A DNA stretch of 64,000 nucleotides from an uncultured bacterium (GCA_963544615.1 CAUUGB010000001.1:10388-74387), one strand, 5' to 3'; numbered from the stretch's first letter, positions 21,355 through 42,722 are shown. The notes: generated by a model not told the origin, from the letters alone. Made by a program: numbers and translations.

Positions 21355-22824
21355 ATGAAAAAATTTGCCCTGGCTTTAGTGAGTGTATTGTGGTTGGCAG
21401 GAGTGAGTGCGGCAGCAGTGCCGGAATGGCATTTGCTCAATGCAGTGGCGACTCAAATGGATGTCACTGTTGACGGACAGCATTATCACACAGAGGTTGC
21501 TGATTCCGAGGTGGCGCTGGTAAATGACTTGATGGTGCAAGTGAGTGATTTTTTACACACTCACACTGCTGGTAGGGTGAAGTTTAGTTTTACTAACTGC
21601 AACACTAGTGAGCCCATTACCAGCCTGTCTGAAGTAGATTACGGGAATTTTGATGTACTCCCACATCCCGCTGATAAGAATTATTATCCTAAAATTAAGA
21701 ACTTACCTGAGGTTATTCGGCGGCAAATGGTTAGCCACGATGTCATGATAGCAACAGTCAGAATGCCGGAAAAGCTGGCGAGTAATTGGCGAGGGTTGGG
21801 ATCTACGGGATATGCAGTCATTAGACTGTTTGATTTTTCGCAGTATCAAAGTGTTGGTTTTGAGCAACTTCATCTGCAATTTTATTTACACGAACTCATG
21901 CATGGTTTTTTGAACTATTTTGCCACGATTGGGTATCAAATTCCCAATATTCATCGTCCCGCTGATTATGGTTATGCCAGTGAGATGGAACTATTTGCTG
22001 CCATTCTCTCTGGGGAAATGCGTGATCCGGCGACAGGGCACAATTTGGGGATTACTGCAGCCATGTGGGCTAAATCTCCTTTATCTCAAATAATTGTGCC
22101 ACCCACTATCGAGTTGGATCTCTCTGATTTACATTTAGTGGAGGGCAAACTAGTATTGCAAGTGGGACAAGAAGTGCATGCTCAGTTGAAAGCTGTAGTT
22201 AGTCCCGACAATGCTGGTTTAGAGGTGACCTATTTTGATGATCACCAATTGCCCCCCGGTCTGACTTTGAGTGAGCAGGGGCTGTTATCAGGCAGACCCA
22301 CTACAGTGGGTAGGCGTTATGTGAGCGTTACTGCCCAAGCTGGCAATGCAATTGATAGTGCCAGTTTTATTATTGAGGTGCTGCCAGCAACGCCTCATCC
22401 TACCCCCACTCCCACTCCTAGCTTAAAGTTGGATGTGGCTGCTTTAGGGGTAGTCAATGGTCAGCTCACGCTGCAGCCAGGACAGAGAGTGCAAGCACAA
22501 GTGCGTACCAATGCCCCTGCTAGCACGGCGGTTACTTTTACCAGTAGCGGCTGGCCCACGGGATTGGCTTTAAGCTCCACTGGCTGGTTGACTGGCTCTA
22601 GCAGGGCGGTAGGGCAGTGGCCAGTTACCATTATTGCCAGAGCTGCAGGGCAACAAGATACCGCCAGCTTCCAGCTGGTGATTGCAGCAAACAATTCTCC
22701 GGCATTGCCTGACCCTCAGTTGCCTGGTACTGGCGGTGATGAGGGTGGCGGTGGTTGTCAGGTGGCAGGCTTAACTTATTTGCTGCTGCCATTGTGGTGG
22801 TTGAGGCGGCAAAAAAAGTGTTAA
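21355..22824 (+). CDS. Cell-wall-anchored (LPGTG) zinc-metalloprotease-like protein with two Ig-like (He_PIG-type) repeats.
   Basis: Signal peptide. HELMHGF (HExxH) motif. Two roughly 95-aa repeats (PPGLTLSEQGLLSGRPTTVGRRYVSVTA... / PTGLALSSTGWLTGSSRAVGQWPVTI...) resembling putative Ig domains. C-terminal LPGTG + hydrophobic span + RRQKK sorting signal. Confidence 0.7.
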   Translation: MKKFALALVSVLWLAGVSAAAVPEWHLLNAVATQMDVTVDGQHYHTEVADSEVALVNDLMVQVSDFLHTHTAGRVKFSFTNCNTSEPITSLSEVDYGNFDVLPHPADKNYYPKIKNLPEVIRRQMVSHDVMIATVRMPEKLASNWRGLGSTGYAVIRLFDFSQYQSVGFEQLHLQFYLHELMHGFLNYFATIGYQIPNIHRPADYGYASEMELFAAILSGEMRDPATGHNLGITAAMWAKSPLSQIIVPPTIELDLSDLHLVEGKLVLQVGQEVHAQLKAVVSPDNAGLEVTYFDDHQLPPGLTLSEQGLLSGRPTTVGRRYVSVTAQAGNAIDSASFIIEVLPATPHPTPTPTPSLKLDVAALGVVNGQLTLQPGQRVQAQVRTNAPASTAVTFTSSGWPTGLALSSTGWLTGSSRAVGQWPVTIIARAAGQQDTASFQLVIAANNSPALPDPQLPGTGGDEGGGGCQVAGLTYLLLPLWWLRRQKKC

Positions 22825-22839
22825 AGAATTATATTTTGA

Positions 22840-22863
22840 CCCCGGGTGACCCCGGGGTTTTTT
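22840..22863 (+). terminator. Rho-independent terminator
   Basis: CCCCGGG-tgac-CCCGGGG followed by T6, 16 nt after the stop. Confidence 0.8.
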
Positions 22864-23044
22864 GTGGTGCTAGCAGATAAACTACTAGCAAGTAATTTTC
22901 CGTTTTCTCCAGTGATGAGATGTGACTCGGTGCTTTGGCAAAATGCTACTTGATTTTCTCGGGAGAAGTGTTTATAGTTAAAGCAACCTTAAAATTGGTT
23001 AGTTTAGTATTTTACTCGCCAACAGTTGAGGTTAAAGTAAATTA

Positions 23045-24493
23045 ATGGCAAGCATGTCTCAAGTACCAATTAAGTCACAGCTGTCAGCTTTTTGGCAGCG
23101 GTTAACCGCCAGTCCGCAAAAACAACGCCGACTATTGGGGGCGGGGTTGCTGCTGGTTTTTTTTGTTTTGGGTTTTTGGGCTTGGTGGTTATGGCGTCAT
23201 CCCGCGAGTGTTTACACCAAACCTCCCAAAAAAGTTGCTACCGAGCGTTTGGCGCAAGTTTTACCTGCTCCCAGTCCGGTGCCAGCCGATAATCAGGCGC
23301 TGCAAGCTGCCGCTTTAATTTTGGCGCATTTTAATCCTCAAGCTGGCAACCCAGGAGTGGTAGACCAGCGTGGTTTTTATGGTGATGAGCGCTATTGCCA
23401 TAATCAGTTTAGTCGCCAAGGTCAACCGGTTTGTAAAGCGGTGTTACATGACATCATGGGTGATTACGAGAGTATGGCCAGTTTTCGCTCTACAGTGCAA
23501 CTGCTTTGGGCACGCTACCGTTATTATTTAGCCAGCAATAATCGCCAGCAGTTGACTCAGCTTCTTTTAGATGTGGATAATTTAGTGAGTAATGTGCTCG
23601 ACTCACCCTCTTATGTACTACAAAATCAAGACTTTAATTGTTTGTTGATGAGAGAGCTATATTTTTCTCCGGTTTTAGATGCTGAAACTAAAGAAAAAGC
23701 TCGCCGTCTTTGCCAAGAATCTCACCCCGAAATGCATCCGGAAAGTTTGTGGGAATATGACCAATATCATCATCCACTTTACTATATTGACGATTTTCTC
23801 CAAGTGGCTATGGTTGACTCCACTCGTCATATTCCAGATTCAGAGAGGGTTACTTACCGTGCTGCCAGTTTGCAGCAAGAGCTTAATCAGGATTTGCTAC
23901 TAATTGCTAACGGGGGAGTGCTACCAGCCACCACTTATGCTCGGATTAGCAGTGAAGATAAATTAATGTTTTTACGCCTAGAAGCTAATGCGGCGCTTGA
24001 TTATTTAGCCCAGAGCGAAATTAATCAAGCTGACGAGTTGCGCTATGAGCAAAGTATGGTGGAGTATTTGCTCACCAGCAAAGAAACACTCAATTGGTTG
24101 CTGACTACCCCCAATGCTTGGTATAGTGATGGCGCTTGTTTGGTGGGAGTGAATATTCGCGCTTACTTAGAGCGCTTTGCTCCTAATTTGCTTAGTGAAA
24201 CTCAATTAGCCGTGCTGCGGAGTAAATTGCCTTTTGTTGATGAAGCCAGCGAGCTGGATTGTGTTTTAGCTGGGAGCATTCTTTTCCCCCAAGATCCTAA
24301 TGTTACCTATCAATTGCACAAGCGTCTTAAATCACTCGCCGCCAGTTATCAGCCAGGTTTACCTTTAGGAGATTTTTTACATCAAAGTGCTGGTGATAAA
24401 CAGCCCAGTTATTATTACCCCACGGTACGTAATGCTTATTACGCCGGTTTATTAAGTGAATATGCCCAACAACAAAATTATGCCCAAAAATAA
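23045..24493 (+). CDS. Membrane-anchored hypothetical protein (N-terminal TM helix, large extracytoplasmic alpha-helical domain).
   Basis: TM helix LLGAGLLLVFFVLGFWAWWLW. It overlaps the start of the giant Cys-rich protein gene, suggesting co-transcription. Confidence 0.5.
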   Translation: MASMSQVPIKSQLSAFWQRLTASPQKQRRLLGAGLLLVFFVLGFWAWWLWRHPASVYTKPPKKVATERLAQVLPAPSPVPADNQALQAAALILAHFNPQAGNPGVVDQRGFYGDERYCHNQFSRQGQPVCKAVLHDIMGDYESMASFRSTVQLLWARYRYYLASNNRQQLTQLLLDVDNLVSNVLDSPSYVLQNQDFNCLLMRELYFSPVLDAETKEKARRLCQESHPEMHPESLWEYDQYHHPLYYIDDFLQVAMVDSTRHIPDSERVTYRAASLQQELNQDLLLIANGGVLPATTYARISSEDKLMFLRLEANAALDYLAQSEINQADELRYEQSMVEYLLTSKETLNWLLTTPNAWYSDGACLVGVNIRAYLERFAPNLLSETQLAVLRSKLPFVDEASELDCVLAGSILFPQDPNVTYQLHKRLKSLAASYQPGLPLGDFLHQSAGDKQPSYYYPTVRNAYYAGLLSEYAQQQNYAQK

Positions 24494-27400
24494 ATTCTTC
24501 TTCACAGTTTTATTAACTCTTACTTTAATTTTGGGGGGAATGGTACTAACTGTTAAGGCTCAACCAACTCCTACCCCTACTGACAAAACTCCATTGCAAA
24601 TTATCAGCAGTGAACAATTTCTCCGACGATTAGAAGAAAATTTGCCAAAAGATACTAAACCGGTTTATGTTTTTTCTGGTGCATATCAGCGGTTGTTTTA
24701 TCGACCCGCAAATAAAAATTGGAGTGGTAACTTGCTGACTATTCCCACTGATGTCCCGGCTCCTTATAAAGGTGGTCAAGATGTGCGTTCAGGAGTAATT
24801 TTGCCTTTAATTCAAAATTTAATCGACAATATTGACCCTGCCACTGATATTGGTGCTAATACTAATGTGTCTTTGCCGGCCTCAGTCACTATCCCTATTA
24901 TTAAAGGTTTAAAAAATGTGTGCGACCAGCAATGCGATGACAGTCGCTATAATAGCAATTTCCAGCTTTGTTTTCTACCTCGATGCACTGGTGGTGGTAA
25001 AGATGAGCCTCCTAAAAAATGTACTTGTGCCAGTAATTTAAGATGGAAAAAAGCTACCGATGTTTGTTACAATCAAACCATGCCCGGTGGCACTGATGGC
25101 TTGTGTGTTTTTAAAGATGAGGAATTAAAAGAGCGCTGTCGTGAATATGAATGTAGTGTTACCGAAGAATGCCCTACTGATGAAAATGGCAATAAAATTG
25201 TGGGTGATGATTGTGATCTCATGCCATATAATAAGAATTTTTCTAGTGAATCATTTAATGAAAATAATGCTTTTATGAATAAATATCGGTCATATAGCTG
25301 GATTAAAGATGCCTATGAGAATTGCTATACAGACAATTTTGTTCCTAGTAATTATCAGCCTACCTGGTGTGATGATAGTGTGTCTGTTTCAGATCCACCC
25401 GAGAATGGAGCTACTGATCCACCTGAAAATAGTGATGATTACAAAAAAGATTTTGCTTGCAATAACGATGATCGGCGTATGATGTGTGTTCATGATAATA
25501 AGGCGATGCCAGCTTTAACTAAAGCGACAGTTGATTGTTTGGCTGCTTTGAAAACCATGTTTTATGATATTGGTTCGCTTGGTGATTTATATAAAGCAAT
25601 TCTTGACATTATGAATGAAATGCTTGATGAATTAGAAAACTATATTTTACCGCCGGTGGTGATTGGTGGCGGGTATAAATGGAGCAAAACTCCAGAAGAA
25701 ACTAACATAATTGATGAGCCGGGCTTTTGTTTGAATAAGAATGTGAGTACTTGTTCTTGTGGACATATTTTACCTTTTAATGGTAGCACCATTACCAATT
25801 TGGGTTTGCGCCGTAAACTTTTGTCTTATGGAGTGGCGGATGCGAATAAATACTGTGTTAATACCGAAGGCGACCCGGCTTGTACCTATAGTTATAGTTG
25901 GGATACCGAAGAGGTGGAGGATAAACCGGTCAGCCGTAATACCAAAGTAGGGATGAGAAACATTTATGCCAGTCGGGCTTCTTATCCGGGTTGGGTAACT
26001 CATAAGGGTGGCTATGTGCATGGAGCCACTTGTGCTAAAAGACCCAAGGGCTCTTCGATTGGTGGTAGTGAATCCGGGAGTAAAACTCGCACTTTTGAGG
26101 TAACTGATAAAGAATTTTTCTTTTTACAAGCGCGCTATTTTGCCGATAAAATTGCCAGAGGAGAGAGCGACGAGCTCTCTTATGGTGGTTGTGATGATCG
26201 CTCTAATATTTTATACAATCATGCCACCGCCGCTCATTGCCAGCGCAAGGGTAAGCGAGGTATTAAATGTCGTTCGGGGTCTCGGCGGCGCTTTAGTAGT
26301 TATGCTTGCGATATTAATGGGGGAGTAATTAATCAGTGCAAAAATGGCAGAGTGGATGGCGGGCGTAACACTATTTGTCAGGTTTGTGGGCCTATTTATT
26401 GTGGTGAGCATGGTCTTTATTCCGATACCAATACAGTGCGCAAAAATTTTAAACTTGGTAATAGTCCTACCAGGCATTATAAATTTTATCGTTATTATCA
26501 TCCTCAGGGTTCCACCAAATATGGTGGTGGTGATGAGGGTGGTGGGGGTACCATAGATGGCTCGGAGATTTTTTACAGCTATAGCAGTCAAATTTGTTTG
26601 GGGGAGCGCTGTAATAGTAGCTACAATGACGCTGTTTTTACTCCACGTGATTTACCAGCTAATTCTGGTCAGGTTTTTGATGACCGCACTTGTCCCGAAG
26701 GAGAGATTGTTGACCCTTGCAAGCAGAGAGCCATTGCTAATAATTGGGGTGGGCACCGGCTGTGTTATGAGAGCTGTTGTGTGAGTAGTGATGGCAGCAA
26801 ATGTGATCGTTTTCCCCATGATTGCCCTCCGGGTGAGTGTTGTGAAGATGACGATAATAGTTGTCGTCAGCCAGCTGATAATTATCATTATGGTGGCGAC
26901 TTATGTTCTATTGGGGATGACACGAGTAAAACAGTTTCCGGAGTAGCAATTCCGGCTGCAGATGCCGAAAAATATGCTAACTACCAGTGTAATGTGGCAG
27001 GTACTTATGACACTCATTATCCAAAAAGCGTGGCTGAAAGTTATACATTCCCACTAAAGGAAAAAAGTGCTTGCTATTTTTGTGGTTGCGCTCCCATAGA
27101 GGGTAATAGCGGCAAAAGCGGTTGGTGGCCCCGTAATGCCAAAATTAAACATGGTGACCAGTGTTTAACTCCTGAACAGAAATGTGCTGCTGAATTTAAT
27201 CAAGTAAAAAATAACAAGCTAGAAATTGGCTATGATGGTTTAGCCCAAGCTATGGATAGGTCTGATGTTGATAGTCCTGTAACTTTGTTAAAAGGCATTA
27301 CTGGTATGACTAATTTAAGATGTGTGCGGTGCCGCTGTGTTGCCGGAGATGGTATTTGTGATGGGTATTCTGGTGATCCTAACGGGGTTTGTAAGAATTA

Positions 27401-30026
27401 TCCTCAGGGGACACTCGATCCAGATTGTGATCCTTTACTTCCATCACCAGGCCCTGAGTCTTGTGGTCCAAGTAATTGCAAAACACCTGGTGCTTGCTCT
27501 TGTAAAGTAAAACCTGGTTATAACTTAACTGAGTATCCTTATGGTGATGATTATGGTAATCATCCTCAGTGTCGTATTTGCATTTACAAATCCAAACCAA
27601 CTGGTTGTGGTGATGGTATTTGCAGTGGTTTGGAAACTTGTGAAAATTGTTCCCAAGATTGTGGTAAGTGTCCGCAGATGAGTGAGTGTCCCGATGGTTA
27701 TAGTAAGCTGTGCACTGGGGAGGGGTATCCTGTTACTGGTCTTGGAGATTGTAAACGCTGCTATGACCCTAATCACCTTGAGCAGCCTCAACATGGTTGT
27801 CAGGACGATGGTTATTGTAATCCTCTCTGCGAAGAAAAAGATGCGGATTGTGAGCCCGAGACAGCTAAGTATTTAACTAATGACAATGGTTGTCCTTACG
27901 GTTATGGCAAAACAAAAGAGTGTGGTTATGGTGAACGTCATCCTCTTTTAAGTGGCTGCTATGCTTGTGGTTGCGAGAGGCGTAAAAAGAACTTTATAGA
28001 AACCAAAATTGATAATCCACAGCTTTGTGATAAAGATGACAATCATGAGGAGGATAACTGTGACATTCATATGAAAGAATTTAGTTGCAGTCCATATGAC
28101 AATCAAAATAATTCTGGTTTACATTGGAAAGTGGTTACCTTAGCGCAGCAGCAGCAAATTTATCGCGATTCCCTCTGTTATGGCTATCAATTTTTTACCA
28201 CTAAAGAAGATAGCAGTGTGGTTACAGTAGGTGTTGATGTCTCTTACTATGATTATCAACAACGTGACGCTTGGATGCTTGATAGTGACGGTAAAGGTTT
28301 TATTTATTCTGACGCTAAAGGTGGTTATCGGCGCTGTCGCCCCGTGCGTATGCCTTATCGCGGTGGTAGCCTTAGCAGTGGCAAAGCTGGTCTGTGCGAA
28401 TATCGCTGTATTCCCGCCATGCATCAAGCCATTGTTTTAAGCTGTAGCGAAATTGATGCTCGTTATCCTCATGAGTACCGGGGTAATCCCAGTGATGAGA
28501 TGGTTTTTATTCCCGATGTTGCCCGCTCGGCTGGTAATAAAGAAGTTTACCTTGGTGGCACTAGTGAGGGCTTGAGTGTGGTGCCGCGTAGTAATGACGC
28601 ACGCTGTGGTCGCTATTATCGCGTCTACCCCAAACATATCGATAAGTCTGAGACTAATGATATTAACGGTGATGGCAAGGTTGACTGGCAAGATGGTAAC
28701 GCTGCCGCCTCTTATTTATTTACTGATTGGTGGCAAGTGGGTGGTAATGCTTACGGTAACGCTGGTGTGAGCAATTACGGCGAAAAAACGGCTTTTGTGG
28801 CAGAGCCGGCAGAAGTAAAAAATCTCAATCCCGCTACTGCCAAACTAGTAGGGAAAATGAAATCTTATCAGTATGCACTAAATGATGGGAGCTGTATTAC
28901 CAGTGGTGGGGAAATTAAGACCGGTGATTGGCAGCCGCCAACTGCTTATAAGCCTTCATCAGGCGCTGGTTTGCAGGTAACAGGTAGTGGCAATCCCACC
29001 ACCCTCATTAATAAACGCACTTATCGTCCATCTAATCAAACTGGCTTGGCGGCTAAAGGTGGTTACCAGTTTAGCTATCAAAAGCAGCGTGCTTTAGACT
29101 TTGAGTATTACCGTACTCTACTTGATTATGAAAAAATACCTAAGAATGGTAGTAGTAGAGTTCAAGTGAAATTAGCCGATGGTAATATAGAGGAAACTTT
29201 TGTCTACCGTTTTTTTGGCAGAAATGTTAAATTCAATGATGATATTAAGCCCATTGTAGATAGTATTGGTGTAGATAAAAAAGTAGTTATCTTTGTAGAA
29301 AGTCAGGGTGCTGAAACAAGTAATGTCGGCGGTAACTTTATTCTCGATGCTAATATGGCAAGTTATGATCCCAATGGTTATTTAGCAGTGATTGCTCAAA
29401 AAGACTTTATTATTGAGCCTCAAGTTGGTTATCATTTAAATACCCAAAATGGCCAAGGTTGTGGTATTAATACTGTCACATTATGCACTCCCTCATTTAA
29501 TGGGGTAGTTATTGCGCGAGGTTTAGTGATGAAGCGCGAGGGTGACGGCAGCGATCCCAGCAGTAACCCTACGTTGGTGGATGGTCTTTTTAATCCCCAG
29601 CTTACTTGTGATAAACGCTTAGTGCTTAAAGGCGCTTATGCTTTTTGGGGCAAGCAACCGGTGGTCTTTACCCGGACTCTTTTGGGCTGTGGTTTGAAAA
29701 AAGGTCCTTTCTCCAATGACAAGGCGAGCTTAAATGTTCACAATGCTCGAGGTAATGCTCATGGAGATGACTTTGAGGGCAGGCGACCAGATGTAAAGCT
29801 TAATAACAAGAATGCCTATGATGATTATTGTCGCACTGGCACAGTTAGGCGCAATGGTAATGGCTACTATAACTATCACTTGAATTGGCCAGATAGTCAG
29901 GGTGGGATGTACAATAACTACAATCGCTTGATTTCTGCTACTCAGTTGGTGGTTAATCAACAGTTAATTAATTTAACTCCTGCTTGGATGAGACAAAACC
30001 TCACCACTCGTTTGGAGGTGCGCTAA
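24480..30026 (+). CDS. Giant secreted cysteine-rich protein (about 1850 aa), a putative surface/adhesion protein.
   Basis: Signal peptide MPKNKFFFTVLLTLTLILGGMVLTVKA. Alternative starts are GTG 24456 and ATG 24462. The N-terminal roughly 1150 aa are extremely Cys-rich with CGDGIC...E.C..C..DCG-type modules and Gly/Asp/Tyr-rich spacers. A dockerin/EF-hand-like loop DINGDGKVDWQD is present. The C-terminal roughly 650 aa are Cys-poor and Gly/Asn/Tyr-rich. Confidence 0.7.
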   Translation: MPKNKFFFTVLLTLTLILGGMVLTVKAQPTPTPTDKTPLQIISSEQFLRRLEENLPKDTKPVYVFSGAYQRLFYRPANKNWSGNLLTIPTDVPAPYKGGQDVRSGVILPLIQNLIDNIDPATDIGANTNVSLPASVTIPIIKGLKNVCDQQCDDSRYNSNFQLCFLPRCTGGGKDEPPKKCTCASNLRWKKATDVCYNQTMPGGTDGLCVFKDEELKERCREYECSVTEECPTDENGNKIVGDDCDLMPYNKNFSSESFNENNAFMNKYRSYSWIKDAYENCYTDNFVPSNYQPTWCDDSVSVSDPPENGATDPPENSDDYKKDFACNNDDRRMMCVHDNKAMPALTKATVDCLAALKTMFYDIGSLGDLYKAILDIMNEMLDELENYILPPVVIGGGYKWSKTPEETNIIDEPGFCLNKNVSTCSCGHILPFNGSTITNLGLRRKLLSYGVADANKYCVNTEGDPACTYSYSWDTEEVEDKPVSRNTKVGMRNIYASRASYPGWVTHKGGYVHGATCAKRPKGSSIGGSESGSKTRTFEVTDKEFFFLQARYFADKIARGESDELSYGGCDDRSNILYNHATAAHCQRKGKRGIKCRSGSRRRFSSYACDINGGVINQCKNGRVDGGRNTICQVCGPIYCGEHGLYSDTNTVRKNFKLGNSPTRHYKFYRYYHPQGSTKYGGGDEGGGGTIDGSEIFYSYSSQICLGERCNSSYNDAVFTPRDLPANSGQVFDDRTCPEGEIVDPCKQRAIANNWGGHRLCYESCCVSSDGSKCDRFPHDCPPGECCEDDDNSCRQPADNYHYGGDLCSIGDDTSKTVSGVAIPAADAEKYANYQCNVAGTYDTHYPKSVAESYTFPLKEKSACYFCGCAPIEGNSGKSGWWPRNAKIKHGDQCLTPEQKCAAEFNQVKNNKLEIGYDGLAQAMDRSDVDSPVTLLKGITGMTNLRCVRCRCVAGDGICDGYSGDPNGVCKNYPQGTLDPDCDPLLPSPGPESCGPSNCKTPGACSCKVKPGYNLTEYPYGDDYGNHPQCRICIYKSKPTGCGDGICSGLETCENCSQDCGKCPQMSECPDGYSKLCTGEGYPVTGLGDCKRCYDPNHLEQPQHGCQDDGYCNPLCEEKDADCEPETAKYLTNDNGCPYGYGKTKECGYGERHPLLSGCYACGCERRKKNFIETKIDNPQLCDKDDNHEEDNCDIHMKEFSCSPYDNQNNSGLHWKVVTLAQQQQIYRDSLCYGYQFFTTKEDSSVVTVGVDVSYYDYQQRDAWMLDSDGKGFIYSDAKGGYRRCRPVRMPYRGGSLSSGKAGLCEYRCIPAMHQAIVLSCSEIDARYPHEYRGNPSDEMVFIPDVARSAGNKEVYLGGTSEGLSVVPRSNDARCGRYYRVYPKHIDKSETNDINGDGKVDWQDGNAAASYLFTDWWQVGGNAYGNAGVSNYGEKTAFVAEPAEVKNLNPATAKLVGKMKSYQYALNDGSCITSGGEIKTGDWQPPTAYKPSSGAGLQVTGSGNPTTLINKRTYRPSNQTGLAAKGGYQFSYQKQRALDFEYYRTLLDYEKIPKNGSSRVQVKLADGNIEETFVYRFFGRNVKFNDDIKPIVDSIGVDKKVVIFVESQGAETSNVGGNFILDANMASYDPNGYLAVIAQKDFIIEPQVGYHLNTQNGQGCGINTVTLCTPSFNGVVIARGLVMKREGDGSDPSSNPTLVDGLFNPQLTCDKRLVLKGAYAFWGKQPVVFTRTLLGCGLKKGPFSNDKASLNVHNARGNAHGDDFEGRRPDVKLNNKNAYDDYCRTGTVRRNGNGYYNYHLNWPDSQGGMYNNYNRLISATQLVVNQQLINLTPAWMRQNLTTRLEVR

Positions 30027-30044
30027 ATTAAATTACCACTCATC

Positions 30045-31754
30045 TTGAGGCTTATGTCTATTAATGGTCGCTATCAGCAATTTTATTCGCCAAAGATGAA
30101 GCGCCTGGTCTTTCCTCAAGGCAATCTTTATGATTTATTGCAGCAAGCTAATCAGGGGAAAGAGAATGAGTATGCACTTGATTATTTTGGTCAGCGCCTA
30201 ACATATGGTTGGCTTTTTAGTGAAATTGAGCGCTGCACTAGTGCACTTTTAGCACTGGGAATTAAGCAAGGTGAGGTAGTGACTGTTTGCTCACTTTTAA
30301 CGCCGGAAACCCTGGCAGTTTTTTATGCGCTCAATCGCTTAGGTGCAATTAGCGATTGGCTCGATCCGCGCTCTAGCGAGCCAAAAATTATTAAAACCCT
30401 CAAACAAACTAAAAGTAAATTATTAATTATCCTCTCACCATTGGCAAAAGTTTTTGCTAAGGCTTTGTCTAAAAGCAGTTGTCGAGTGGTAATTTTATTA
30501 AATCCTCTCACTCAAGCTGGTCTGCCAAGCAAAGTTTTGGGTACCCTTAAAGGTTTATTTACTCCAGCACCAGCTTTTCCCTCCAAAATTCGCTTACTCA
30601 CTTATAAGCAATTGCTTTTATTAGCCCATAAGCAGCCTGCCCCCAATATTCGTCCACGCCTTCATCAGGGGGCGGCTATTGTACATACTGGTGGCACCAC
30701 TGGGCAGCCTAAAGCAGTTTTGCTCACTAATGAGAGTATTAATGCCGAGGTTACCCAAGTGGCTAATTTTCATTTGCGGTTTAAGCGCCAAGAGCGCTGG
30801 CTCTCTTATTTACCGCCTTTTGTGGTGGTTGGTTTAGTAAATGTGATTCACTTACCCTTAATCTTAGGGATGGAGCTTTGTTTAGTGCCCAACTTTCTTA
30901 CCATGACTTTAGCTCAACAGCTTAAAACTTATCGGCCACATCATATTCCCTGCATTTCGCTGCATTGGCGCGAAATTATCAGCGGTAAAAAGTTGCAAAA
31001 TTTTTCTCTTGATTTTGTTAAAAGTATTATTGTAGGAGGGGACGTTTTTTACCGGGGTATGGAAGAGCGCCTGATTGATTTTTTGCGCGCCCATAATTGC
31101 CATATTGCCCCCACCAAATGTTATGGCTCGAGTGAAAGCTCTTCAGTGGCAGTCGCCGGCTGTAATCATCAACCTTATAATAAATTAGGTAGTGTAGGTA
31201 TTCCTTTACCAGGTAATCAGGTTGCCATTTATGAGGTAGAGAAAAAGCAACTGACTGGTCGAGCTGGAGTGATTGGGGAAATTTGTTTAGCCGGACCGGT
31301 TTTAATGAAAGGCTATTATGCCGATGAAACCGCTAGTAAAAAAAGTCTGCGCACTCATGCGGGTAAGCTGTGGTTGCATACCGGAGACTTAGGTTATTTA
31401 GATGATGATGGAGTATTATTTTTAGCGGGACGCAGTAAGCGGATGATTATTAGACGGGGCTTTAAAATTTATTCTTTAATGATTGAACAATTACTTAATC
31501 AGCAAGAGGAGGTTAAAATTGCTGTGGTGGTCGGTAAACCAGATAAAGCTGATGATGAAGTGCCTTGTGCCCATTTAGTACTGCAAGAAGATTACAGTCA
31601 CCGCCCGGCTGAGGTGGAAAAGAAGCTACGCTTGCTTTGCCAACAGCATTTAAGTGATTATCAAGTGCCGGTGCAATGGTATTTTCACCAGTCTTTACCA
31701 CTAACTGCCAATGGTAAAATAGATTATCGTTTTTTAGAAAACTATCATGAATAA
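30045..31754 (+). CDS. Adenylate-forming enzyme (AMP-dependent synthetase/ligase, acyl-CoA/acyl-AMP ligase family).
   Basis: AMP-binding motif I HTGGTTGQPKAV. Core motifs YGSSESS and HTGDLGYLDDDGVLFLAGRSKRMI. No carrier-protein gene is adjacent. Confidence 0.8.
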   Translation: MRLMSINGRYQQFYSPKMKRLVFPQGNLYDLLQQANQGKENEYALDYFGQRLTYGWLFSEIERCTSALLALGIKQGEVVTVCSLLTPETLAVFYALNRLGAISDWLDPRSSEPKIIKTLKQTKSKLLIILSPLAKVFAKALSKSSCRVVILLNPLTQAGLPSKVLGTLKGLFTPAPAFPSKIRLLTYKQLLLLAHKQPAPNIRPRLHQGAAIVHTGGTTGQPKAVLLTNESINAEVTQVANFHLRFKRQERWLSYLPPFVVVGLVNVIHLPLILGMELCLVPNFLTMTLAQQLKTYRPHHIPCISLHWREIISGKKLQNFSLDFVKSIIVGGDVFYRGMEERLIDFLRAHNCHIAPTKCYGSSESSSVAVAGCNHQPYNKLGSVGIPLPGNQVAIYEVEKKQLTGRAGVIGEICLAGPVLMKGYYADETASKKSLRTHAGKLWLHTGDLGYLDDDGVLFLAGRSKRMIIRRGFKIYSLMIEQLLNQQEEVKIAVVVGKPDKADDEVPCAHLVLQEDYSHRPAEVEKKLRLLCQQHLSDYQVPVQWYFHQSLPLTANGKIDYRFLENYHE

Positions 31755-32982
31755 ACAGTCTCCTACCCCCACTACCACTCAGTCTGCAGGTTTATTGGCA
31801 ATCATGCAAGCTTACAGTTGGAGTGTTTACTTTTTTTGCCTGCTACTTTTAGCGGTGGTTTTTAGTAAAACTTTTTTGGGGGAATATCCTTTTGATGTTA
31901 GTGAAGTTTTAATTGCCATGCACGAATTTAGCGGGGGGTTGCTCAGCAATGGGATAGTTGCTGGGTTTTTGTTTTTAGTTTCTTTAGTACCGATAGCGAT
32001 TATGGCTGCCTTAATTCACTCTCAAGGCAAAAAAATTACCGCTGTCAAGCTTACTTCTGCCAACTGGCGAGTACGGCTTTTTTTAGCGCTCTTGTTAGGG
32101 GGTACTTTTTTACTTCATTTACTGCCCACTTTTTCTTGCGCTAATCCTATGTGTGATTATTTACCGGTGGTGGCCAGTTTTCCTGGTTTGCCTTTGGGGG
32201 TGGCTTTAGCCACCACTGTCGATGGTTGGGCTAGCGCTCAGGGTGGGGTGTGGGCACAGCTAGATTATCGCTTTTTAACTATTCTCCCGAATGCTTTGTT
32301 TTTGTTGGTTCTCTCTTTTTATTTTCTCACTCCTAAAGCCCAGTTGCCGCGCTTAATTCGCTCACGTTTGCTGCTTTGTTTGGGTTTGCTGATACTAGTT
32401 TTAGGTTTGCTGGTTTTTTATCTTTATTACTTGTCGCAAATAGTTTTTACTTTAAGTGATAATGATTTAGCCGATTTATTAAATCAGCACGCTCCAGCGC
32501 AAGTGGTAGAAGATTTTCATTTTCAAATTGGTGATGTCCTCATTCATCGTCCCAAAGAAATTGGTCAAGATTTAGTGACTAAATTAAGTGGTACCAATTT
32601 ATCGCATACCGATACTTATTGCGGTGAGAATGAGTTAATCAATGGCAATGGTGATAATTTTTTTCAAACTGGAGGAATTAATATTGATAAGCTTGAGTGG
32701 CAACAGCGTTATGTGCGTGGTTCATTGCCACTGACGGTAGTTTTACGCCATCCCGATCCGCAGGTAGGAGCACAGTTGTGTGCCAAGCTGCGTCGTGCGG
32801 TTAGTGATCCCAAAATTACTTTTGGGGTAGATTTGCTTAATAAGCGGCAAACTTTTAACTGTTCTAATATGGTGTATTATTATTTATATCCCCAAGCGCC
32901 CAATTTTAATTTAGTCACTCCCGATTTACTGTTTGTCACCATGCTCCAGCATGACTGGCGCTTAGTTAATTGGACTAACTAA
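31747..32982 (+). CDS. Polytopic membrane protein fused to a C-terminal permuted papain-fold (YaeF/YiiX, C92 / LRAT-like) domain.
   Basis: About six TM helices in the first 240 aa. The C-terminal domain carries GDVLIHRP, SHTDTYCG and FNCSNMVYYY. These match the Gly-Asp, His and Cys-Ser motifs in the order typical of YaeF/YiiX permuted NlpC/P60 proteins. It overlaps the adenylating-enzyme gene by 8 nt. Confidence 0.5.
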   Translation: MNKQSPTPTTTQSAGLLAIMQAYSWSVYFFCLLLLAVVFSKTFLGEYPFDVSEVLIAMHEFSGGLLSNGIVAGFLFLVSLVPIAIMAALIHSQGKKITAVKLTSANWRVRLFLALLLGGTFLLHLLPTFSCANPMCDYLPVVASFPGLPLGVALATTVDGWASAQGGVWAQLDYRFLTILPNALFLLVLSFYFLTPKAQLPRLIRSRLLLCLGLLILVLGLLVFYLYYLSQIVFTLSDNDLADLLNQHAPAQVVEDFHFQIGDVLIHRPKEIGQDLVTKLSGTNLSHTDTYCGENELINGNGDNFFQTGGINIDKLEWQQRYVRGSLPLTVVLRHPDPQVGAQLCAKLRRAVSDPKITFGVDLLNKRQTFNCSNMVYYYLYPQAPNFNLVTPDLLFVTMLQHDWRLVNWTN

Positions 32983-33018: not shown

Positions 33019-33906
33019 ATGAAAAAATCTGTATCATCACCGTCAACTAGTTCTGCCAGCGGTTCCTTGTTAGCGGGCAAAAAAAAAGTTAAAAAAGCAG
33101 CCAAAAAAAATCTTTCTAGTTCAACTACTAACACTGACAGCAAAAAAAATCTGCCCCCCAAAAAAAGTGGTCAGCTGTTTTTTTTAGTTTTAGCTTTAGC
33201 ACTTTTGTTTGCAGTGGCTTGGCGGTTGAAAGGGGGGCTAAATTTAACCAAACCCAGTCAACCCAGCACTCCCTCTGCCGATGAGATAGAAAGCTATGAT
33301 ATTTATGAGGTGGAGGCAGAAATCCTTGAGCAAGAGGCCACCCTTTACAATGATTATTTTGCCTTTAGCTACACACTGCCACCTAGTTACGCTGTTTATG
33401 AATGGTGGGAGCATAATTTAGCTAAAGAGCCGGGTGAAACTGGGCGCTTATCTCAGTTTGAGTTTACCAATGAGGATGGTGAGAGAGATAGTGAGAGTAG
33501 CCCCAATAGTGAGCAAAAATTTATTAGTTTTATTGCTTATGGTAATAAGCGCTACTCCCAGCTGGAGGATCATTTTGATGTCATAGTGGACGCAATTAAA
33601 ATTGCCGGCGCAGATAATCAGGAAACTTTTTTAGACCTTTACGAAAAGAATTTAATTTTTGGGCAAAAATTAGCCGAGGACTATTTGTTGGAGAAAAAAA
33701 CTCCCCTGCAGCTTGCTGGTAGAGATTGGGCGCAGCGCCTTTACCAGAGCGTGGGTGATGAGCGACCAATTTATTTGCTCCGTCTTGCCACACCACTTAA
33801 AAATGGTTATTTTTTGGTGATGCAATCTACTTATTGGGCCAACAATCCTCAGGCTTATGAGCAAGTATTAGCTCATTTTGCTCAAAGCATTAAGTTTAGT
33901 GAGTAA
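33019..33906 (+). CDS. Membrane-anchored hypothetical protein with a Lys/Ser-rich cytoplasmic N-terminus.
   Basis: Basic low-complexity N-terminus, one TM helix (LFFLVLALALLFAVAW), then an acidic soluble domain. It precedes the pilin cluster. Confidence 0.45.
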   Translation: MKKSVSSPSTSSASGSLLAGKKKVKKAAKKNLSSSTTNTDSKKNLPPKKSGQLFFLVLALALLFAVAWRLKGGLNLTKPSQPSTPSADEIESYDIYEVEAEILEQEATLYNDYFAFSYTLPPSYAVYEWWEHNLAKEPGETGRLSQFEFTNEDGERDSESSPNSEQKFISFIAYGNKRYSQLEDHFDVIVDAIKIAGADNQETFLDLYEKNLIFGQKLAEDYLLEKKTPLQLAGRDWAQRLYQSVGDERPIYLLRLATPLKNGYFLVMQSTYWANNPQAYEQVLAHFAQSIKFSE

Positions 33907-33952: not shown

Positions 33953-33981
33953 TTGACAAAGGGGTGAATTTTTTCTAAAAT
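33953..33981 (+). promoter_or_regulatory. Consensus-like sigma-70 promoter of the major pilin gene
   Basis: -35 TTGACA, 17-nt spacer, -10 TAAAAT. Confidence 0.6.
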
Positions 33982-34024: not shown

Positions 34025-34609
34025 ATGATTATGCTTAAAAGAAGCGCTGCATTTACACTAATTGAATTAATGGTGGTAGTGGCTATTATTGCTATTTTAT
34101 CTACTATGGGGGTAGCAAATTTTTCCACCGCCATTAAGCGCTCGCGTAATGCGGTGCGGCAGAATGATGTCTTGGCGGTAAGTAAAGGTTTGGAAGCTTG
34201 TTATGATGTAATGAGTGCGAGGTATTTAAATCCAGCAGGTGGTGCAGCCACTGATTGCCATAAACCATATGAAAGCACTATGACCGGCGGTGCTAATGGA
34301 GTGTTTAAAGCAGATAGTAAAGGTGATCAGTCTTGTCAAAATCGTTGTCTCAATCAGGATATAAAGCCCAATATGAATAATCATAATTATACGGCATTAG
34401 TAGGATTGGTTGATAGTGCAGAAAAGTTTGTTATTTGTGCCAAGTTAGAAAACGTTGGCAATGTGGAAAGCATTGGTAACTCTAAAACAGATTTAGCAGC
34501 ATTGCCTAATATTGAGACGGCAATCGAAACATTGTCAAATTCTACTAATAAGTGTGATGCTGGTGGCGGTACCGGTGGGTGCTTTTTCTGCGTTACTTCT
34601 TCACAATAA
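34025..34609 (+). CDS. Type IV pilin (prepilin-type N-terminal cleavage/methylation domain), a candidate major pilin.
   Basis: KRSAA|FTLIELMVVVAIIAIL class III signal with Glu at +5. The C-terminal region has Cys pairs. A strong promoter lies upstream and a strong terminator follows. Confidence 0.8.
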   Translation: MIMLKRSAAFTLIELMVVVAIIAILSTMGVANFSTAIKRSRNAVRQNDVLAVSKGLEACYDVMSARYLNPAGGAATDCHKPYESTMTGGANGVFKADSKGDQSCQNRCLNQDIKPNMNNHNYTALVGLVDSAEKFVICAKLENVGNVESIGNSKTDLAALPNIETAIETLSNSTNKCDAGGGTGGCFFCVTSSQ

Positions 34610-34635
34610 ATTAAATAAATTTAGCTAAAGCATTG

Positions 34636-34661
34636 CCCCCTCGCTAGCGAGGGGGTTTTTC
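34636..34661 (+). terminator. Rho-independent terminator after the first pilin gene
   Basis: CCCCCTCGC-ta-GCGAGGGGG followed by T5. Confidence 0.8.
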
Positions 34662-34691
34662 TTGACATACACCTGGAAATAATGCTAAAAT
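34662..34691 (+). promoter_or_regulatory. Promoter of the second pilin gene (extended -10)
   Basis: -35 TTGACA, 18-nt spacer, TGc-TAAAAT extended -10. The ATG at 34698 lies only about 6 nt past the -10, so the transcript is nearly leaderless. Confidence 0.55.
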
Positions 34692-34697
34692 GCTTTC

Positions 34698-35231
34698 ATG
34701 AAACACAAGCAAGCCTTCAGTTTAATTGAATTAATGGTGGTTATTAGTATTATTGCGGTTTTGGCAGCCATGGGGGTGGCTAATTTTGCCACTGCAATTA
34801 AAAAATCTCGCGACTCGGTGCGCAAAAGTGAACTGGCTGAATTAACTCAAGCGCTGATGATGTTTCGGGCAGATTGGGGTTCGTATCCATATCGCTATGG
34901 TATGGATGCAGTAAGGCTGACATCAACAGCCATTTTAAATTACGAAGAGCCAGCCAGTAATCCTGTTAAAACACATGAACTAGTTCCTGATTATATCCGC
35001 TCCATGCCTACCGATGAAGCACGTGTTAGTGAGAGTGAGCAATATACTTATAAGTGCATCACGCCAAAAGAGGTCATCATTGATGGTGTAACTTATTGGC
35101 GCTGTGTTGATTTTAGCGTTTGCGCTTATTTAGAAGTGCCGCAGGTGAGTGGGGCAAATGCTAAAGATGGGATAGGTACTCCTTGTCTCAATCCCAACGA
35201 TTGCAAATGGTTTTGTATGTATAGTCCGTAA
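34698..35231 (+). CDS. Type IV pilin (prepilin-type)
   Basis: KQA|FSLIELMVVISIIAVLAAMG N-terminal domain with Glu at +5. C-terminal Cys residues are present. Confidence 0.8.
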   Translation: MKHKQAFSLIELMVVISIIAVLAAMGVANFATAIKKSRDSVRKSELAELTQALMMFRADWGSYPYRYGMDAVRLTSTAILNYEEPASNPVKTHELVPDYIRSMPTDEARVSESEQYTYKCITPKEVIIDGVTYWRCVDFSVCAYLEVPQVSGANAKDGIGTPCLNPNDCKWFCMYSP

Positions 35232-35236
35232 AGTTC

Positions 35237-36178
35237 ATGCCTCAGTCATTTTGCCGCTATCCTCGCTCTGCTTTCACCTTAATTGAGATTTTAATTGTGG
35301 CAGTGATTTTTAGTATTCTTTCACTGGCAGTGGGGCGGTTTTTAATTACTTTCTTAAATTTAAAACTTAGTGCCGAGACAATTCAGCGCATCCGCCAAGA
35401 AGGCAATTATGCCCTCGACCAAATTGATTATTTACTCCGCAGTGGCTTAACCATGCCCGATGTGTGTGTAGGCAGAATTCGCCCGGCTAATCCTCCCTCC
35501 GGCTTTGATTTGCATCACGATCTTCAAGCAGTCAAAGATAATCCTGATCCTAACAACATCATGCCTGCGCCATGTGTTGAGGAGCCAAAAGATCCTGATC
35601 CTCTTAGTGTCATAACCAAAGAACCTATTCACTGTGAACTTAATCCCACTCCTCAGCCCGGCTTCAGCTACTCATCTTATCACTCCAAAATTTATGACAC
35701 TTGCCAAGAAAAATGTCATGTTTATGATCAACTGCGCACCAACACTCAGGGGTTAGATCAGGTTTATTTTGTGCGCAATTTAGTGGCATTAGCAAATTGT
35801 GATGGCAGTGGTGGTAGTAGTGGATGCCGGCAGCCGTCCTCACCTGATGAGGTATCCAGTTTATATTTATTTCGCAGTTTGGCGGCTGACCGGCGTCATG
35901 ACGATTTTGACGACTTTGCCCGTAGTCCTCAGGTGCAAAGAATTCCCTTAACTAATTGGCGCACTGGAGTTGGGGGTGAACCCTTTTCAGTAAATAATTT
36001 GCGCTTTTATTGTTTTTTTGATTATTTTGCCAACAGCTATGTGGTACACACTTCTTTTGACATCACTTATCAGCGCCAATCTTTAAGTGGTCGGTTGCAA
36101 CAAGTTGGCACCAAGCGAATTAATGAGCGCTTTGAGCGCTTGAGTGTGGTGCGCAATCCTTACCCTTTTGAATACTAA
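35237..36178 (+). CDS. Prepilin-type minor pilin / pseudopilin (313 aa)
   Basis: RSA|FTLIEILIVAVIFSIL N-terminal methylation-domain motif. It has a large divergent C-terminal domain. Confidence 0.65.
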   Translation: MPQSFCRYPRSAFTLIEILIVAVIFSILSLAVGRFLITFLNLKLSAETIQRIRQEGNYALDQIDYLLRSGLTMPDVCVGRIRPANPPSGFDLHHDLQAVKDNPDPNNIMPAPCVEEPKDPDPLSVITKEPIHCELNPTPQPGFSYSSYHSKIYDTCQEKCHVYDQLRTNTQGLDQVYFVRNLVALANCDGSGGSSGCRQPSSPDEVSSLYLFRSLAADRRHDDFDDFARSPQVQRIPLTNWRTGVGGEPFSVNNLRFYCFFDYFANSYVVHTSFDITYQRQSLSGRLQQVGTKRINERFERLSVVRNPYPFEY

Positions 36179-36253: not shown

Positions 36254-36934
36254 TTATGGAGAAGTCAGACAAGAGCCGTTATAAGGTAATTCATTGGTAA
36301 TGTCTTGGCTAAATTTTTGAGCCACCTGCACTTGTTTATTGTTGCCTTTATAATCTTGATATTGCACGGTTACCACCACGGTAACTTCTTGGGCAGTACC
36401 TGACCCTGACATAAATTTTAAGCGAACTTGGTATTGACCGTGATAACCCAGCTTAAAGTTAGGGTTATTGTCAACCTTGGGTTGACCGCAAATGGTGTCG
36501 TTAACATTACCCCTTGTCTGCCTGCTCCATTCGGTTGTATCAGTAAAAAAGTCTAGCACCGGTTTCTCTGCATACAGACCCGCTGGTCGATTAAGAATAT
36601 CGTAAGCGGGTAATTGATAGGGAAACTCACATTTAATTTCATCTGCCCATCCACTGTTAGGAGTAGTATACTCATTGCTTTTTCCGGCACATTGTTCCCA
36701 AAGCCGCTGGTAAAATTGCCACCACAACATCCCATCACGAGCGGTGCGCCAGCGCTCCAGGCAAGAATTGGCTTGGTCGACTGCCTTAGCCCGCAGCCGG
36801 GCGTCAATAATTACCCGCTGGGTATAAAAAATATTACTGGCTAAAGCTATGAGGACAAAAGAAATCAAGGTCACCGCCACTAGTATTTCAATCAGTGATA
36901 AAGCGCTTTGGTGTGAAGGAGTGGTTTTTAGCAT
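36254..36934 (-). CDS. Prepilin-type minor pilin (PilV/FimT-like)
   Basis: HQSA|LSLIEILVAVTLISFVL N-terminal motif with Glu at +5. Confidence 0.65.
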   Translation of the reverse strand: MLKTTPSHQSALSLIEILVAVTLISFVLIALASNIFYTQRVIIDARLRAKAVDQANSCLERWRTARDGMLWWQFYQRLWEQCAGKSNEYTTPNSGWADEIKCEFPYQLPAYDILNRPAGLYAEKPVLDFFTDTTEWSRQTRGNVNDTICGQPKVDNNPNFKLGYHGQYQVRLKFMSGSGTAQEVTVVVTVQYQDYKGNNKQVQVAQKFSQDITNELPYNGSCLTSP

Positions 36935-37593
36935 GTTTCTGTCTTACATCTCTCTATATTCTCACAAAAACAGCCGTGCGTAAAGGTGCCATTTTCTAGT
37001 AAAAATACATAATAGAGGTCGCCATCAGTTAAAATAAAACGAGCGTTAGCGTGTTTATGGTCAGTTTTCTCCTTTTCTGTGACGGGAGCAGATCCATTTT
37101 TCACATAAATTAAACCATATAAAGAATCAAAAACAAGCGTGTTGCCACCATTCTCATTGTGAATACTTAAGCCCACATCTTGAGGTAGGGTAAAATAGTG
37201 AGTTTTGTTAGTTTTCTCTTCATTAGCACCATCACGGTCTTTTTTACTGTAAAAATAAACTTTGGGTTCCAATTTACTACTCGTGTTACCGCTGTCAGTT
37301 GGAGGCAAGCCAGCAATCTGCCAATGACTCAATTTACACTCGCCTTTGGCGATAGTTGCTTCGTCGGCTGAACTGCAAGATTCTTCACCCCCACCACGAT
37401 TACCCAGACGAGCTTTTTGAGCCATACTGTTAAAATAAACAATTAATTCTCTGGCGGTATTTTCCAGTCGCTGGCGGTCGCGTACTTTTAGATAGTTAAC
37501 CAGTCCCACGGTGAGCAAAAAAACCACAATGGCAACTACGGCTAAAACTTCCACTAAGCTGTACCCTGCCTTCTTGCCCTGCATGAGCATCAT
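36928..37593 (-). CDS. Prepilin-type minor pilin
   Basis: KKAG|YSLVEVLAVVAIVVFLL N-terminal motif with Glu at +5. It overlaps the downstream pilin gene by 7 nt. Confidence 0.65.
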   Translation of the reverse strand: MMLMQGKKAGYSLVEVLAVVAIVVFLLTVGLVNYLKVRDRQRLENTARELIVYFNSMAQKARLGNRGGGEESCSSADEATIAKGECKLSHWQIAGLPPTDSGNTSSKLEPKVYFYSKKDRDGANEEKTNKTHYFTLPQDVGLSIHNENGGNTLVFDSLYGLIYVKNGSAPVTEKEKTDHKHANARFILTDGDLYYVFLLENGTFTHGCFCENIERCKTETC

Positions 37594-38750: not shown

Positions 38751-38754
38751 ATTT

Positions 38755-42678: not shown

Positions 42679-42722
42679 AAAAAATTAGGGGGGAGTGACG
42701 GCATCAAACACTTCCCAATATT

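Follow-up and report, generated by a model that had tools for sequence, protein, structure and literature searches.

What joins a giant cysteine-rich secreted protein, an adenylating enzyme and a membrane-embedded papain-like protein in one compact block of genes? The question is raised by positions 23045-32982 of a 64,000-nt stretch of DNA from an uncultured bacterium (GCA_963544615.1 CAUUGB010000001.1:10388-74387), which was analyzed whole and is called the window here; all coordinates refer to it, and the family matches of its proteins mark it as a segment of bacterial chromosome. A preliminary description of this region had noted four co-directional genes, and the listing of open reading frames (ORFs) places all four on the plus strand at the positions given there; we refer to them as A, B, C and D (Table 1). 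They had also been called overlapping or tightly spaced. The spacing holds (A and B overlap, B and C are separated by 18 nt, and C and D overlap by 8 nt), but the unit probably also takes in a fifth gene, E, 36 nt downstream of D. The answer we arrive at centers on D, which most likely places a permuted papain-like domain on the outer face of the membrane and may act on fatty-acyl chains on behalf of the surface proteins A and B, with C a ligase of separate recent history.

The preliminary description had ended D in a YaeF/YiiX-type permuted NlpC/P60 domain, quoting the motifs GDVLIHRP, SHTDTYCG and FNCSNMVYYY, all of which are present. The D sequence alone matched no Pfam, NCBIfam or PDB-sequence entry, and its homologs among 5.8 billion proteins fell into four clusters. 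An exhaustive profile search added two distant full-length relatives (P0026 and P0027) and a set of ~220-amino-acid (aa) proteins in which one N-terminal transmembrane (TM) helix precedes a D-type C-terminal domain; the D profile found nothing in GTDB species-representative genomes, and neither it nor a profile of the C-terminal region of B found anything in JGI metagenome contigs. Across 38 aligned sequences His287, Cys372, Gly262-Asp263 and Arg334 are invariant, and the His precedes the Cys, which is the permuted papain-like order; in profile comparisons against the PDB, the His motif aligns with LytE residues 83-113 and the Cys motif with LytE residues 30-52, their order swapped. In a model of the C-terminal 182 aa built from a 38-sequence alignment (predicted local distance difference test (pLDDT) 82.6, predicted template-modeling score (pTM) 0.84), in which His58, Cys143, G33/D34, R105 and Y62 correspond to His287, Cys372, G262/D263, R334 and Tyr291 of D, Cys143 stands at the N-terminus of a helix (143-151) and His58 opens a strand (58-62), as in papain, and the order of elements (beta1-5/alphaD/alphaF/alphaG/beta6) fits the permuted core of Xu et al. 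2011 (PMC3142127). The Gly-Asp (GD) motif lies in the region of strand 35-38 and the Arg in strand 101-105, matching the residues of BcPPNE, where the GD motif on beta1 is hydrogen-bonded to an Arg on beta5 (Asp25-Arg98; PMC3142127); in D the bond itself is predicted. By three-dimensional similarity the model falls with the solved PPNE structures, in agreement with Foldseek. Further structural matches were to TseH (8.0), PLAAT4 (6.9), the MARTX Rho-inactivation domain (RID; 6.6) and Aichivirus 2A (5.5), whereas canonical cell-wall NlpC/P60 proteins scored only ~4. The invariant Cys/His dyad, the swapped order and the fold match together bear out the earlier assignment.

Within the permuted branch, D belongs most naturally in a sister or new family rather than in C92 proper, because the Pfam C92 threshold is not reached and the third residue of the catalytic triad is not conserved. 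D has no match to PF05708 (Peptidase_C92) at E values up to 0.1, and 17 of the 38 relatives match it at 15-20 bits (best E 1e-4) against a gathering threshold of 27. At the third triad position the window clade has Asn, P0026 Ser, P0027 Val and the single-TM relatives Glu; the corresponding residue of BcPPNE is Glu64, and LRAT tolerates loss of the third residue (PMC3142127). Tyr291 is invariant and is at most a candidate counterpart of the conserved active-site Tyr (Tyr127/Tyr115). The single-TM relatives (P0029-P0067, loci L020-L025) are C92-like proteins with no source annotation and no Pfam family; they have a conserved Cys pair just N-terminal to the GD motif and no conserved gene neighborhood, and their named members belong to the candidate phyla radiation (CPR; Nomurabacteria, Minisyncoccia).

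The description of D as a six-TM protein fused to this domain stands as to the fusion, but hydropathy and charge favor five helices over six. Topology was derived from Kyte-Doolittle hydropathy and counts of Lys and Arg (K/R) in five homologs, a hand-made heuristic. The layout is a basic N-terminus, TM1, a K/R-free loop, TM2, a loop with 3-5 K/R, TM3, a conserved low-charge region of ~45 residues, TM4, a loop with 4-5 K/R, TM5 and the catalytic domain. The low-charge region, a predicted outside loop with the conserved motif PTFxCxNPxCD...P..AS.PG, includes a weakly hydrophobic, Pro/Gly-rich segment (140-158). In all five homologs an even number of helices lies between the K/R-rich loops 89-110 and 191-207, and because placing the two basic loops inside requires that segment 140-158 not span the membrane, D most likely has five TM helices, its N-terminus in and its papain domain on the outer face. 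The single-TM relatives point the same way, since they are signal-anchored and their domain is necessarily outside. A full-length AlphaFold2 model of D from a 5-sequence alignment reached a pLDDT of 37 and gave no fold for the membrane domain.

That C is an adenylating enzyme, as had been claimed, is well supported. C matches PF00501 (E = 1e-57, 196 bits) and PF13193 (E = 3e-12, 47.6 bits), both above the cut-offs, and contains the core motifs HTGGTTGQPK, YGSSE, TGDLG...GRSKR and the A10 motif NGKIDYR, as well as HTGGTTGQPKAV; the AMP-binding and AMP-binding_C domains, A3, A5, A7/A8 and the A10 Lys that characterize the ANL superfamily are thus all present. Its PDB matches are 4-coumarate-CoA ligase (2e-38), FadD-1 (1e-32), DltA (3l8c; 9e-30) and MenE, and its closest relatives in GTDB species representatives are generic ANL enzymes of 24-38% identity. 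The best NCBIfam model, PRK06187 (long-chain-fatty-acid-CoA ligase), scored 276 bits against a cut-off of 476; the scores with all 25 listed NCBIfam models were below their cut-offs, and no named FadD equivalog or subfamily could be assigned among them. C is predicted to be an intact, active-looking cytoplasmic ANL adenylating enzyme, its sequence having no export signal, and appears to resemble fatty-acid/aryl-acid coenzyme A (CoA) ligases best; a fatty acid is our best guess for its substrate.

B proved as large and as rich in Cys as had been stated: its 96 Cys make up 5.19% of residues, compared with 1.16% across the other 55 ORFs of the window, and 90 of them lie within residues 148-1376. 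Read from its ATG, B matches database protein P0005 at 100% identity, and a signal peptide of ~27 aa, like the single N-terminal helix of A, agrees with the earlier view of B as a signal-peptide protein and A as membrane-anchored. Because 86 of the 96 Cys are invariant across seven homologs with identity down to 48%, they are predicted to be structural, and the even total of 96 is consistent with pairing in disulfides, B being an exported protein. BLAST of B against itself detected no internal repeats. Homologs of B form seven clusters at 48-100% identity, and those whose loci were examined share the same syntenic locus. The first 400 aa of B vary (distant homologs share 21-34% identity there), a conserved core occupies residues 400-800 (60-77%), and the conserved, Cys-poor C-terminal region closes with RLEVR, an ending that no other ORF of the window has. 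Between the window and L005, nonsynonymous divergence (dN) of B is 0.136, compared with 0.008-0.019 for A, D and E; the pilins are similar to B. This pattern is as would be expected of an exposed host-contact protein whose C-terminus is cell-proximal, and the fast evolution and variable N-terminus fit the suggestion that B is an adhesin or host-interaction factor, for which homology gives no support. The comparison of B to dockerins, by contrast, was not sustained: the EF-hand-like acidic loop (alignment consensus NDINGDGxVDWRD) occurs once, with no Pfam match for a dockerin or EF-hand at E values up to 0.1. B also has no lipobox, LPXTG or C-terminal TM helix and ends in ...TRLEVR without a hydrophobic tail, in contrast to the product of the upstream gene 21355-22824, which carries LPGTG, a TM helix and RRQKKC. 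A polymorphic toxin was rejected as an identity for B, the C-terminus being its conserved end and the N-terminus its variable end.

The external domain of A (~430 aa) has six invariant Cys (C118, C130, C199, C223, C365 and C406). A has no family or PDB match in Pfam, NCBIfam, PDB sequences, PADLOC or PHROGs, profile searches included; B has none in Pfam, NCBIfam, the PDB, PADLOC or PHROGs, with profiles used where possible; and E has no family match in the collections searched with A. Family, PDB, profile and protein-cluster searches detected no homologs of A or B outside the clade. Assignment of A, B, E or the TM domain of D to a known defense system, a phage protein, a dockerin or the myxococcal Cys-repeat family was rejected, the family searches being empty.

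Do these genes belong together? Gene order is co-conserved in relatives, as the preliminary description had anticipated, and A-B-C-D-E-pilins is kept in L001-L006; this is weak evidence of linkage, because the entire region, housekeeping genes included, is syntenic in these relatives. Two more distant loci are of greater weight. L018 encodes a D-like protein 40% identical to D; translation of the 72 nt 5' of its gene gives ...IPLTSNSKADYRALEQLP*, the A10 terminus of an ANL ligase whose stop overlaps the D-like start (ATGA), and the same three pilin genes as in the window lie directly 3'. A C-D start/stop overlap also occurs in the window, L001 and L002. E, poorly kept in relatives (38-47% identity), is absent from L018. 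In L019, the most distant relative found, the order is a gene 1 product that is 26% identical to the C-terminal region of B and also ends in RLEVR, a 118-nt gap, a D-like gene (33-35% identity), an A-like gene (25% identity over A residues 110-472) and the start of a second Cys-rich protein; the B-like and D-like genes there have no ligase between them. That last ORF (3739-4572) is signal-anchored and echoes the arrangement of A followed by a Cys-rich giant, the contig ending within it. D is therefore the hub, since it adjoins B and A in one lineage (L019) and C in another (L018), and A, B and D, beside pilins, form what these comparisons indicate is the conserved core. B (seven clusters) and five-TM D (four clusters of 5.8 billion sequences, plus P0026/P0027) are both rare and are found together.

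The history of C is different. The window, L001 (8313-9980) and L002 (~8314-9981) are deeply diverged, but share an island of near-identity that spans C and whose 3' edge is sharp, falling at 31730, seven codons short of the stop of C and just ahead of the start codon of D. In all three pairs among these loci, synonymous divergence (dS) is 0.13-0.16 in C but 1.2-2.4 (saturated) in A, B, D and E, and between the window and L001/L002 the C proteins are 95% identical whereas A, B, D and E are 38-67% identical. An assembly artifact was rejected as the source of the island, which comes from three independent samples whose copies differ by ~3%. The host is probably a small, host-dependent member of Patescibacteria (CPR), likely Saccharibacteria-like, a placement suggested by a Gram-positive-type envelope, a sortase, several type IV pilin loci, and five pilin genes grouped as in 'locus three' of TM7x (PMC11623550); the sources named for distant relatives of the D catalytic domain include Candidatus Nomurabacteria and Minisyncoccia. 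The simplest reading of the C island would be a recent, gene-sized homologous exchange or sweep. Natural competence is known in Saccharibacteria (PMC10633639), and positions 37959-43039 hold a second mosaic block. The second block, which covers part of a 7TM_transglut gene, an ATP-grasp_ST gene, a metallophosphoesterase gene, gpsA and a DUF2268 gene, is 92-96% identical to L001 and ~73% identical to L002 (ATP-grasp dS 0.16 versus 1.49) and indicates frequent homologous exchange among these lineages. The separate history of C argues against its lineage-specific co-adaptation with its neighbors.

Permuted NlpC/P60 enzymes proceed through an acyl-Cys intermediate, and LRAT/PLAAT enzymes and RID are acyltransferases. 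Members of the group act on fatty-acyl bonds, and crystals of YiiX contained a fatty acid (PMC3142127); both Tox-Act1 and TseH act as phospholipases (PMC12994826); and in Staphylococcus aureus LnsA caps the polytopic LnsB on the outside of the cell and moves the sn-1 acyl chain of phosphatidylglycerol to lipoproteins (PMC7387801, PMC13559823). We propose that D would be a single-polypeptide counterpart of the LnsB/LnsA pair, an outward fatty-acyl transferase or hydrolase for a surface module of A and B. At the outer face, the membrane domain of D would offer the papain domain a lipid from the membrane, Cys372 would take a fatty-acyl chain off the phospholipid as a thioester, and D would then hand the chain to an acceptor among the co-conserved surface proteins, B above all. 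B is favored as acceptor because it lacks a TM segment, a lipobox and an LPXTG motif; its acylation would tether it to the membrane, with A as its chaperone or its partner in the membrane. C would activate scavenged or released fatty acids in the cytoplasm, refeeding the phospholipid pool on which D draws. Such an indirect link between C and D, through a fatty-acid or phospholipid pool, is plausible because their start/stop overlap recurs in L018. That B evolves much faster than A and D among close strains was also counted in favor of the proposal. We have high confidence in the identities of the parts taken alone; the full mechanism, in which the parts and their arrangement are observed and we infer the substrate and the direction of transfer, is offered tentatively.

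Several observations weigh against this mechanism. No acceptor site was identified in B, and lipidation is not known for any giant protein of this kind. The TM domains of D and P0026 have no Pfam match at E values up to 10 and no PDB match such as Rce1, thus no likeness to LnsB or the CPBP family, and none of the CPBP motifs (EExxxR, FxxxH, HxxxN) was seen by eye in that of D; a relation to LnsB, itself very divergent, is possible at the level of fold. The topology comes from a hydropathy and charge heuristic, and a sixth TM helix would put the papain domain in the cytoplasm. The third triad residue varies in the five-TM clade. As for linkage, close relatives are syntenic across the whole ~20-kb region, with gpsA, ATP-grasp and Dus included; only L018 and L019, both short contigs, give independent evidence; and the single-TM relatives occur in five unrelated neighborhoods without a ligase, so that the domain itself shows no fixed association with giant proteins. 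Doubtful to a greater degree is the fullest form of the idea, in which a CPR clade anchors a giant adhesin through a five-TM papain enzyme that acylates B covalently, with A as cofactor and a dedicated ligase charging the fatty-acid pool; if true, it would add a new class to the known kinds of extracytoplasmic protein lipidation and would directly link the scavenging of host lipid to attachment to the host.

The locus could instead serve fatty-acid salvage, with D as an outward phospholipase A acting on host or own phospholipids, the fatty acids flipping in and being trapped by C (vectorial acylation), and A and B holding the host surface close. Saccharibacteria have no fatty-acid synthesis (PMC10633639), and this lack in CPR, the C-D start/stop overlap kept in two deep lineages and the predicted topology, with D outside and C inside, are all consistent with such a role. 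However, L019 keeps D with B- and A-like genes where the ligase is absent, C has been exchanged among lineages independently of D, its NCBIfam scores are all below cut-off, and a salvage pathway would be widespread in CPR, yet five-TM D is found in few clusters; we consider this reading unlikely.

It is also unlikely, in our estimation, that there is no dedicated system at all and that the genes are merely neighbors in a compact genome, C being a housekeeping acyl-CoA/acyl carrier protein synthetase, D a general envelope lipid-remodeling enzyme and B an independent adhesin. The ~20-kb synteny, the single-TM relatives of the D domain without conserved neighbors and the decoupled history of C are what such neighbors would leave. 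Set against this, the adjacency of B-like, D-like and A-like genes survives in L019 at 25-35% identity and in rearranged order, the C-D overlap survives in L018 at ~40% D identity, and B and five-TM D, each extremely rare, are nevertheless found together.

In a further reading, which we regard as improbable, B or the pilins would be matured, clipped or released by D acting as a peptidase or amidase, or D would be a wall hydrolase that makes an opening in peptidoglycan for the pilus or the giant protein, with C an unrelated metabolic gene. The papain-like Cys/His fold would suit such an enzyme, D lies directly 5' of pilins in L018, and the invariant RLEVR terminus of B could serve as a recognition site. 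The sequence-level PDB matches of D are all peptidoglycan endopeptidases (LytE, Spr/MepS and CwlO-type), but they span only the short His motif at E = 0.07-1.7, which is not significant, and an enzyme embedded in the membrane with a short linker is badly placed to reach the wall.

Least probable by a wide measure is the direct pairing of acyl activation with acyl transfer put forward in the preliminary description, in which C would pass an acyl-adenylate to a cytoplasmic papain domain of a six-TM D that acylates a membrane lipid or protein: translational coupling of C and D and the hydrophobic segment 140-158 as a candidate sixth helix could be cited for it, but six helices would set the two K/R-rich loops on opposite sides in all five homologs, the single-TM relatives are signal-anchored with their domain outside, C could not hand acyl-AMP directly to D if, as predicted, the papain domain lies outside and the ATP-requiring C in the cytoplasm, the dS of C is decoupled from that of its neighbors, L019 has no ligase between its B-like and D-like genes, the locus has no carrier protein gene, and known permuted NlpC/P60 acyltransferases use phospholipid donors rather than acyl-AMP or acyl-CoA.

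Returning to D as a proposed outward LnsBA-like enzyme, comparison with known systems shows where the locus departs from them. With YaeF/YiiX (PF05708/C92; 3KW0 BcPPNE, 2IF6 YiiX), D shares the fold, the permuted order and the GD-Arg pair, but its domain is only 14-17% identical, and the solved 3KW0 and 2IF6 are single domains of ~180-190 residues whereas D is fused to a novel five-TM domain. In LnsAB, a YiiX-like Cys/His enzyme sits atop a polytopic protein on the extracytoplasmic side of a Gram-positive-type membrane, the arrangement predicted for D, and the acyl chains come from membrane phospholipid without ATP or CoA outside the cell. However, LnsAB is encoded by two unlinked genes where D is one polypeptide, LnsB is CPBP-like where the TM domain of D matches nothing, and its substrates are diacylglyceryl lipoproteins where B lacks a lipobox; D is likened to LnsA at the superfamily level only. 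TseH, Tox-Act1, PLAAT/HRASLS, LRAT and MARTX RID are soluble toxins or eukaryotic tail-anchored enzymes, none of which has an N-terminal polytopic fusion or a link to a giant Cys-rich protein. C has the full AMP-binding and AMP-binding_C architecture and core motifs of FadD/FACS-type ANL enzymes, its nearest GTDB relatives being the 24-38% identical proteins noted above. The Dlt system (the adenylating enzyme DltA, the carrier DltC, the MBOAT protein DltB and the external transferase DltD) follows a similar logic of a cytoplasmic adenylating enzyme beside a polytopic protein and an external transfer domain, but the locus has no carrier or MBOAT hit, its A-E gaps of at most 36 nt leave no room for an extra gene, its external domain has a papain rather than an SGNH fold, and its ligase is dispensable at the locus in L019. 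Within the literature searched, the combination is undescribed, as the preliminary description had supposed. What is new is probably the five-TM plus permuted papain fusion, a new family in a known kind of enzyme, and its joining to two orphan surface proteins.

The surroundings of the locus are consistent with one transcription unit. A terminator-like hairpin 3' of the upstream LPXTG protein gene (Table 1) is likely the upstream limit of the unit, and pattern scans found a weak promoter-like site at 22950-22978, a second terminator-like hairpin at 34635-34656, 3' of the first pilin gene, and the best promoter-like sites at 33953-33981 and 34662-34691, just 5' of the first and second pilin genes, so that the best hairpins bracket the block. 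A single A-E transcript would fit this layout of pattern matches. The unit, probably including E, abuts five pilin-like genes, whose products have N-terminal methylation motifs and 2-4% Cys; the group resembles the TM7x locus, and pil1 is highly divergent even among close strains (dS 1.27, window versus L005).

Table 1. Coordinates of features of the A-E locus and its borders in the window
Feature	Coordinates	Strand	Description
Terminator-like hairpin	22838-22859	+	9-bp stem with 7 GC pairs, then T-run; consensus match only
A	23045-24493	+	482-aa signal-anchored protein; one N-terminal TM helix (~residues 31-51)
B, ORF	24456-30026	+	1856 aa from GTG start
B, from ATG	24480-30026	+	1848 aa
EF-hand-like acidic loop of B	28659-28694	+	DINGDGKVDWQD, residues 1394-1405; single regular-expression match
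C-terminal region of B	28953-30023	+	Cys-poor, conserved; ends in invariant ...RLEVR-COOH
C, ORF	30045-31754	+	569 aa; true start probably ATG 30054
Near-identity island	30054-31730	+	~97% nt identity among window, L001 and L002
D, ORF	31747-32982	+	411 aa
D, N-terminal membrane domain	31747-32433	+	five predicted TM helices: 27-45, 70-88, 111-129, 172-190, 208-226
D, C-terminal domain	32434-32979	+	permuted NlpC/P60 (YaeF/YiiX-like); His287 at 32605-32607, Cys372 at 32860-32862
E	33019-33906	+	Lys-rich N-terminal tail, one TM helix, acidic external domain
Three type IV pilin-like genes	34025-36178	+	N_methyl motif matches; own promoter-like sites
Two more pilin-like genes	36254-37593	-	N_methyl matches

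Elsewhere the window encodes SecDF, FtsK, DnaG, RNase Y, FtsEX, SpoIID, dTDP-rhamnose genes, a sortase, gpsA, many pilins and 1 tRNA-Arg. The gene at 21355-22824 (+) encodes a secreted 489-aa protein with a HELMH zincin-like motif, two immunoglobulin-like repeats of ~80 aa and the C-terminus of a classic sortase substrate (LPGTG, hydrophobic helix, RRQKKC); it has no Pfam family, and relatives encode unrelated Pro-rich proteins (17-19% identity) at the corresponding position. A sortase gene (54709-55461, +) overlaps the end of a 708-aa ORF without a family match (52614-54740, +), and the two may be another surface-protein/sortase pair. Downstream of the pilins, a 7TM_transglut membrane protein gene (37707-38750, +) is followed by an ATPgrasp_ST amidoligase gene (38755-40050, +; PF14402 plus PF14397), a recurring gene pair of unexplained function; the ATP-grasp protein is 83% identical in L018, where D is only 40% identical. 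A 419-aa protein with 10 Cys and a C-terminal Peptidase_C39_2-like domain (58982-60241, -) adjoins ftsEX. In L002-L004 (~20219 to the locus end) a 618-712-aa YcaO-nitroreductase fusion of the azoline/thiazole/oxazole-modified microcin (TOMM) type lies downstream of gpsA; it is missing from the window and L001, where DUF2268 takes its place.

The near-identity island in C is an unusually clean case of what appears to be gene-specific exchange or sweep in deeply diverged, naturally competent bacteria. To our knowledge, bacterial YiiX-like enzymes are widespread, with function almost unassigned until LnsAB and Tox-Act1. D is tied genetically to a candidate substrate or partner and thereby offers a concrete hypothesis for YiiX-like enzymes in Gram-positive-type envelopes. 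The reach of the finding is limited to a narrow, uncultured clade in which A and B have no homologs elsewhere, but within it the locus brings together pilins, a giant surface protein that evolves fast, a ligase of fatty-acid type and an external enzyme that is a candidate for acting on lipids, and so bears on how these CPR bacteria may handle lipids and make contact with their hosts.

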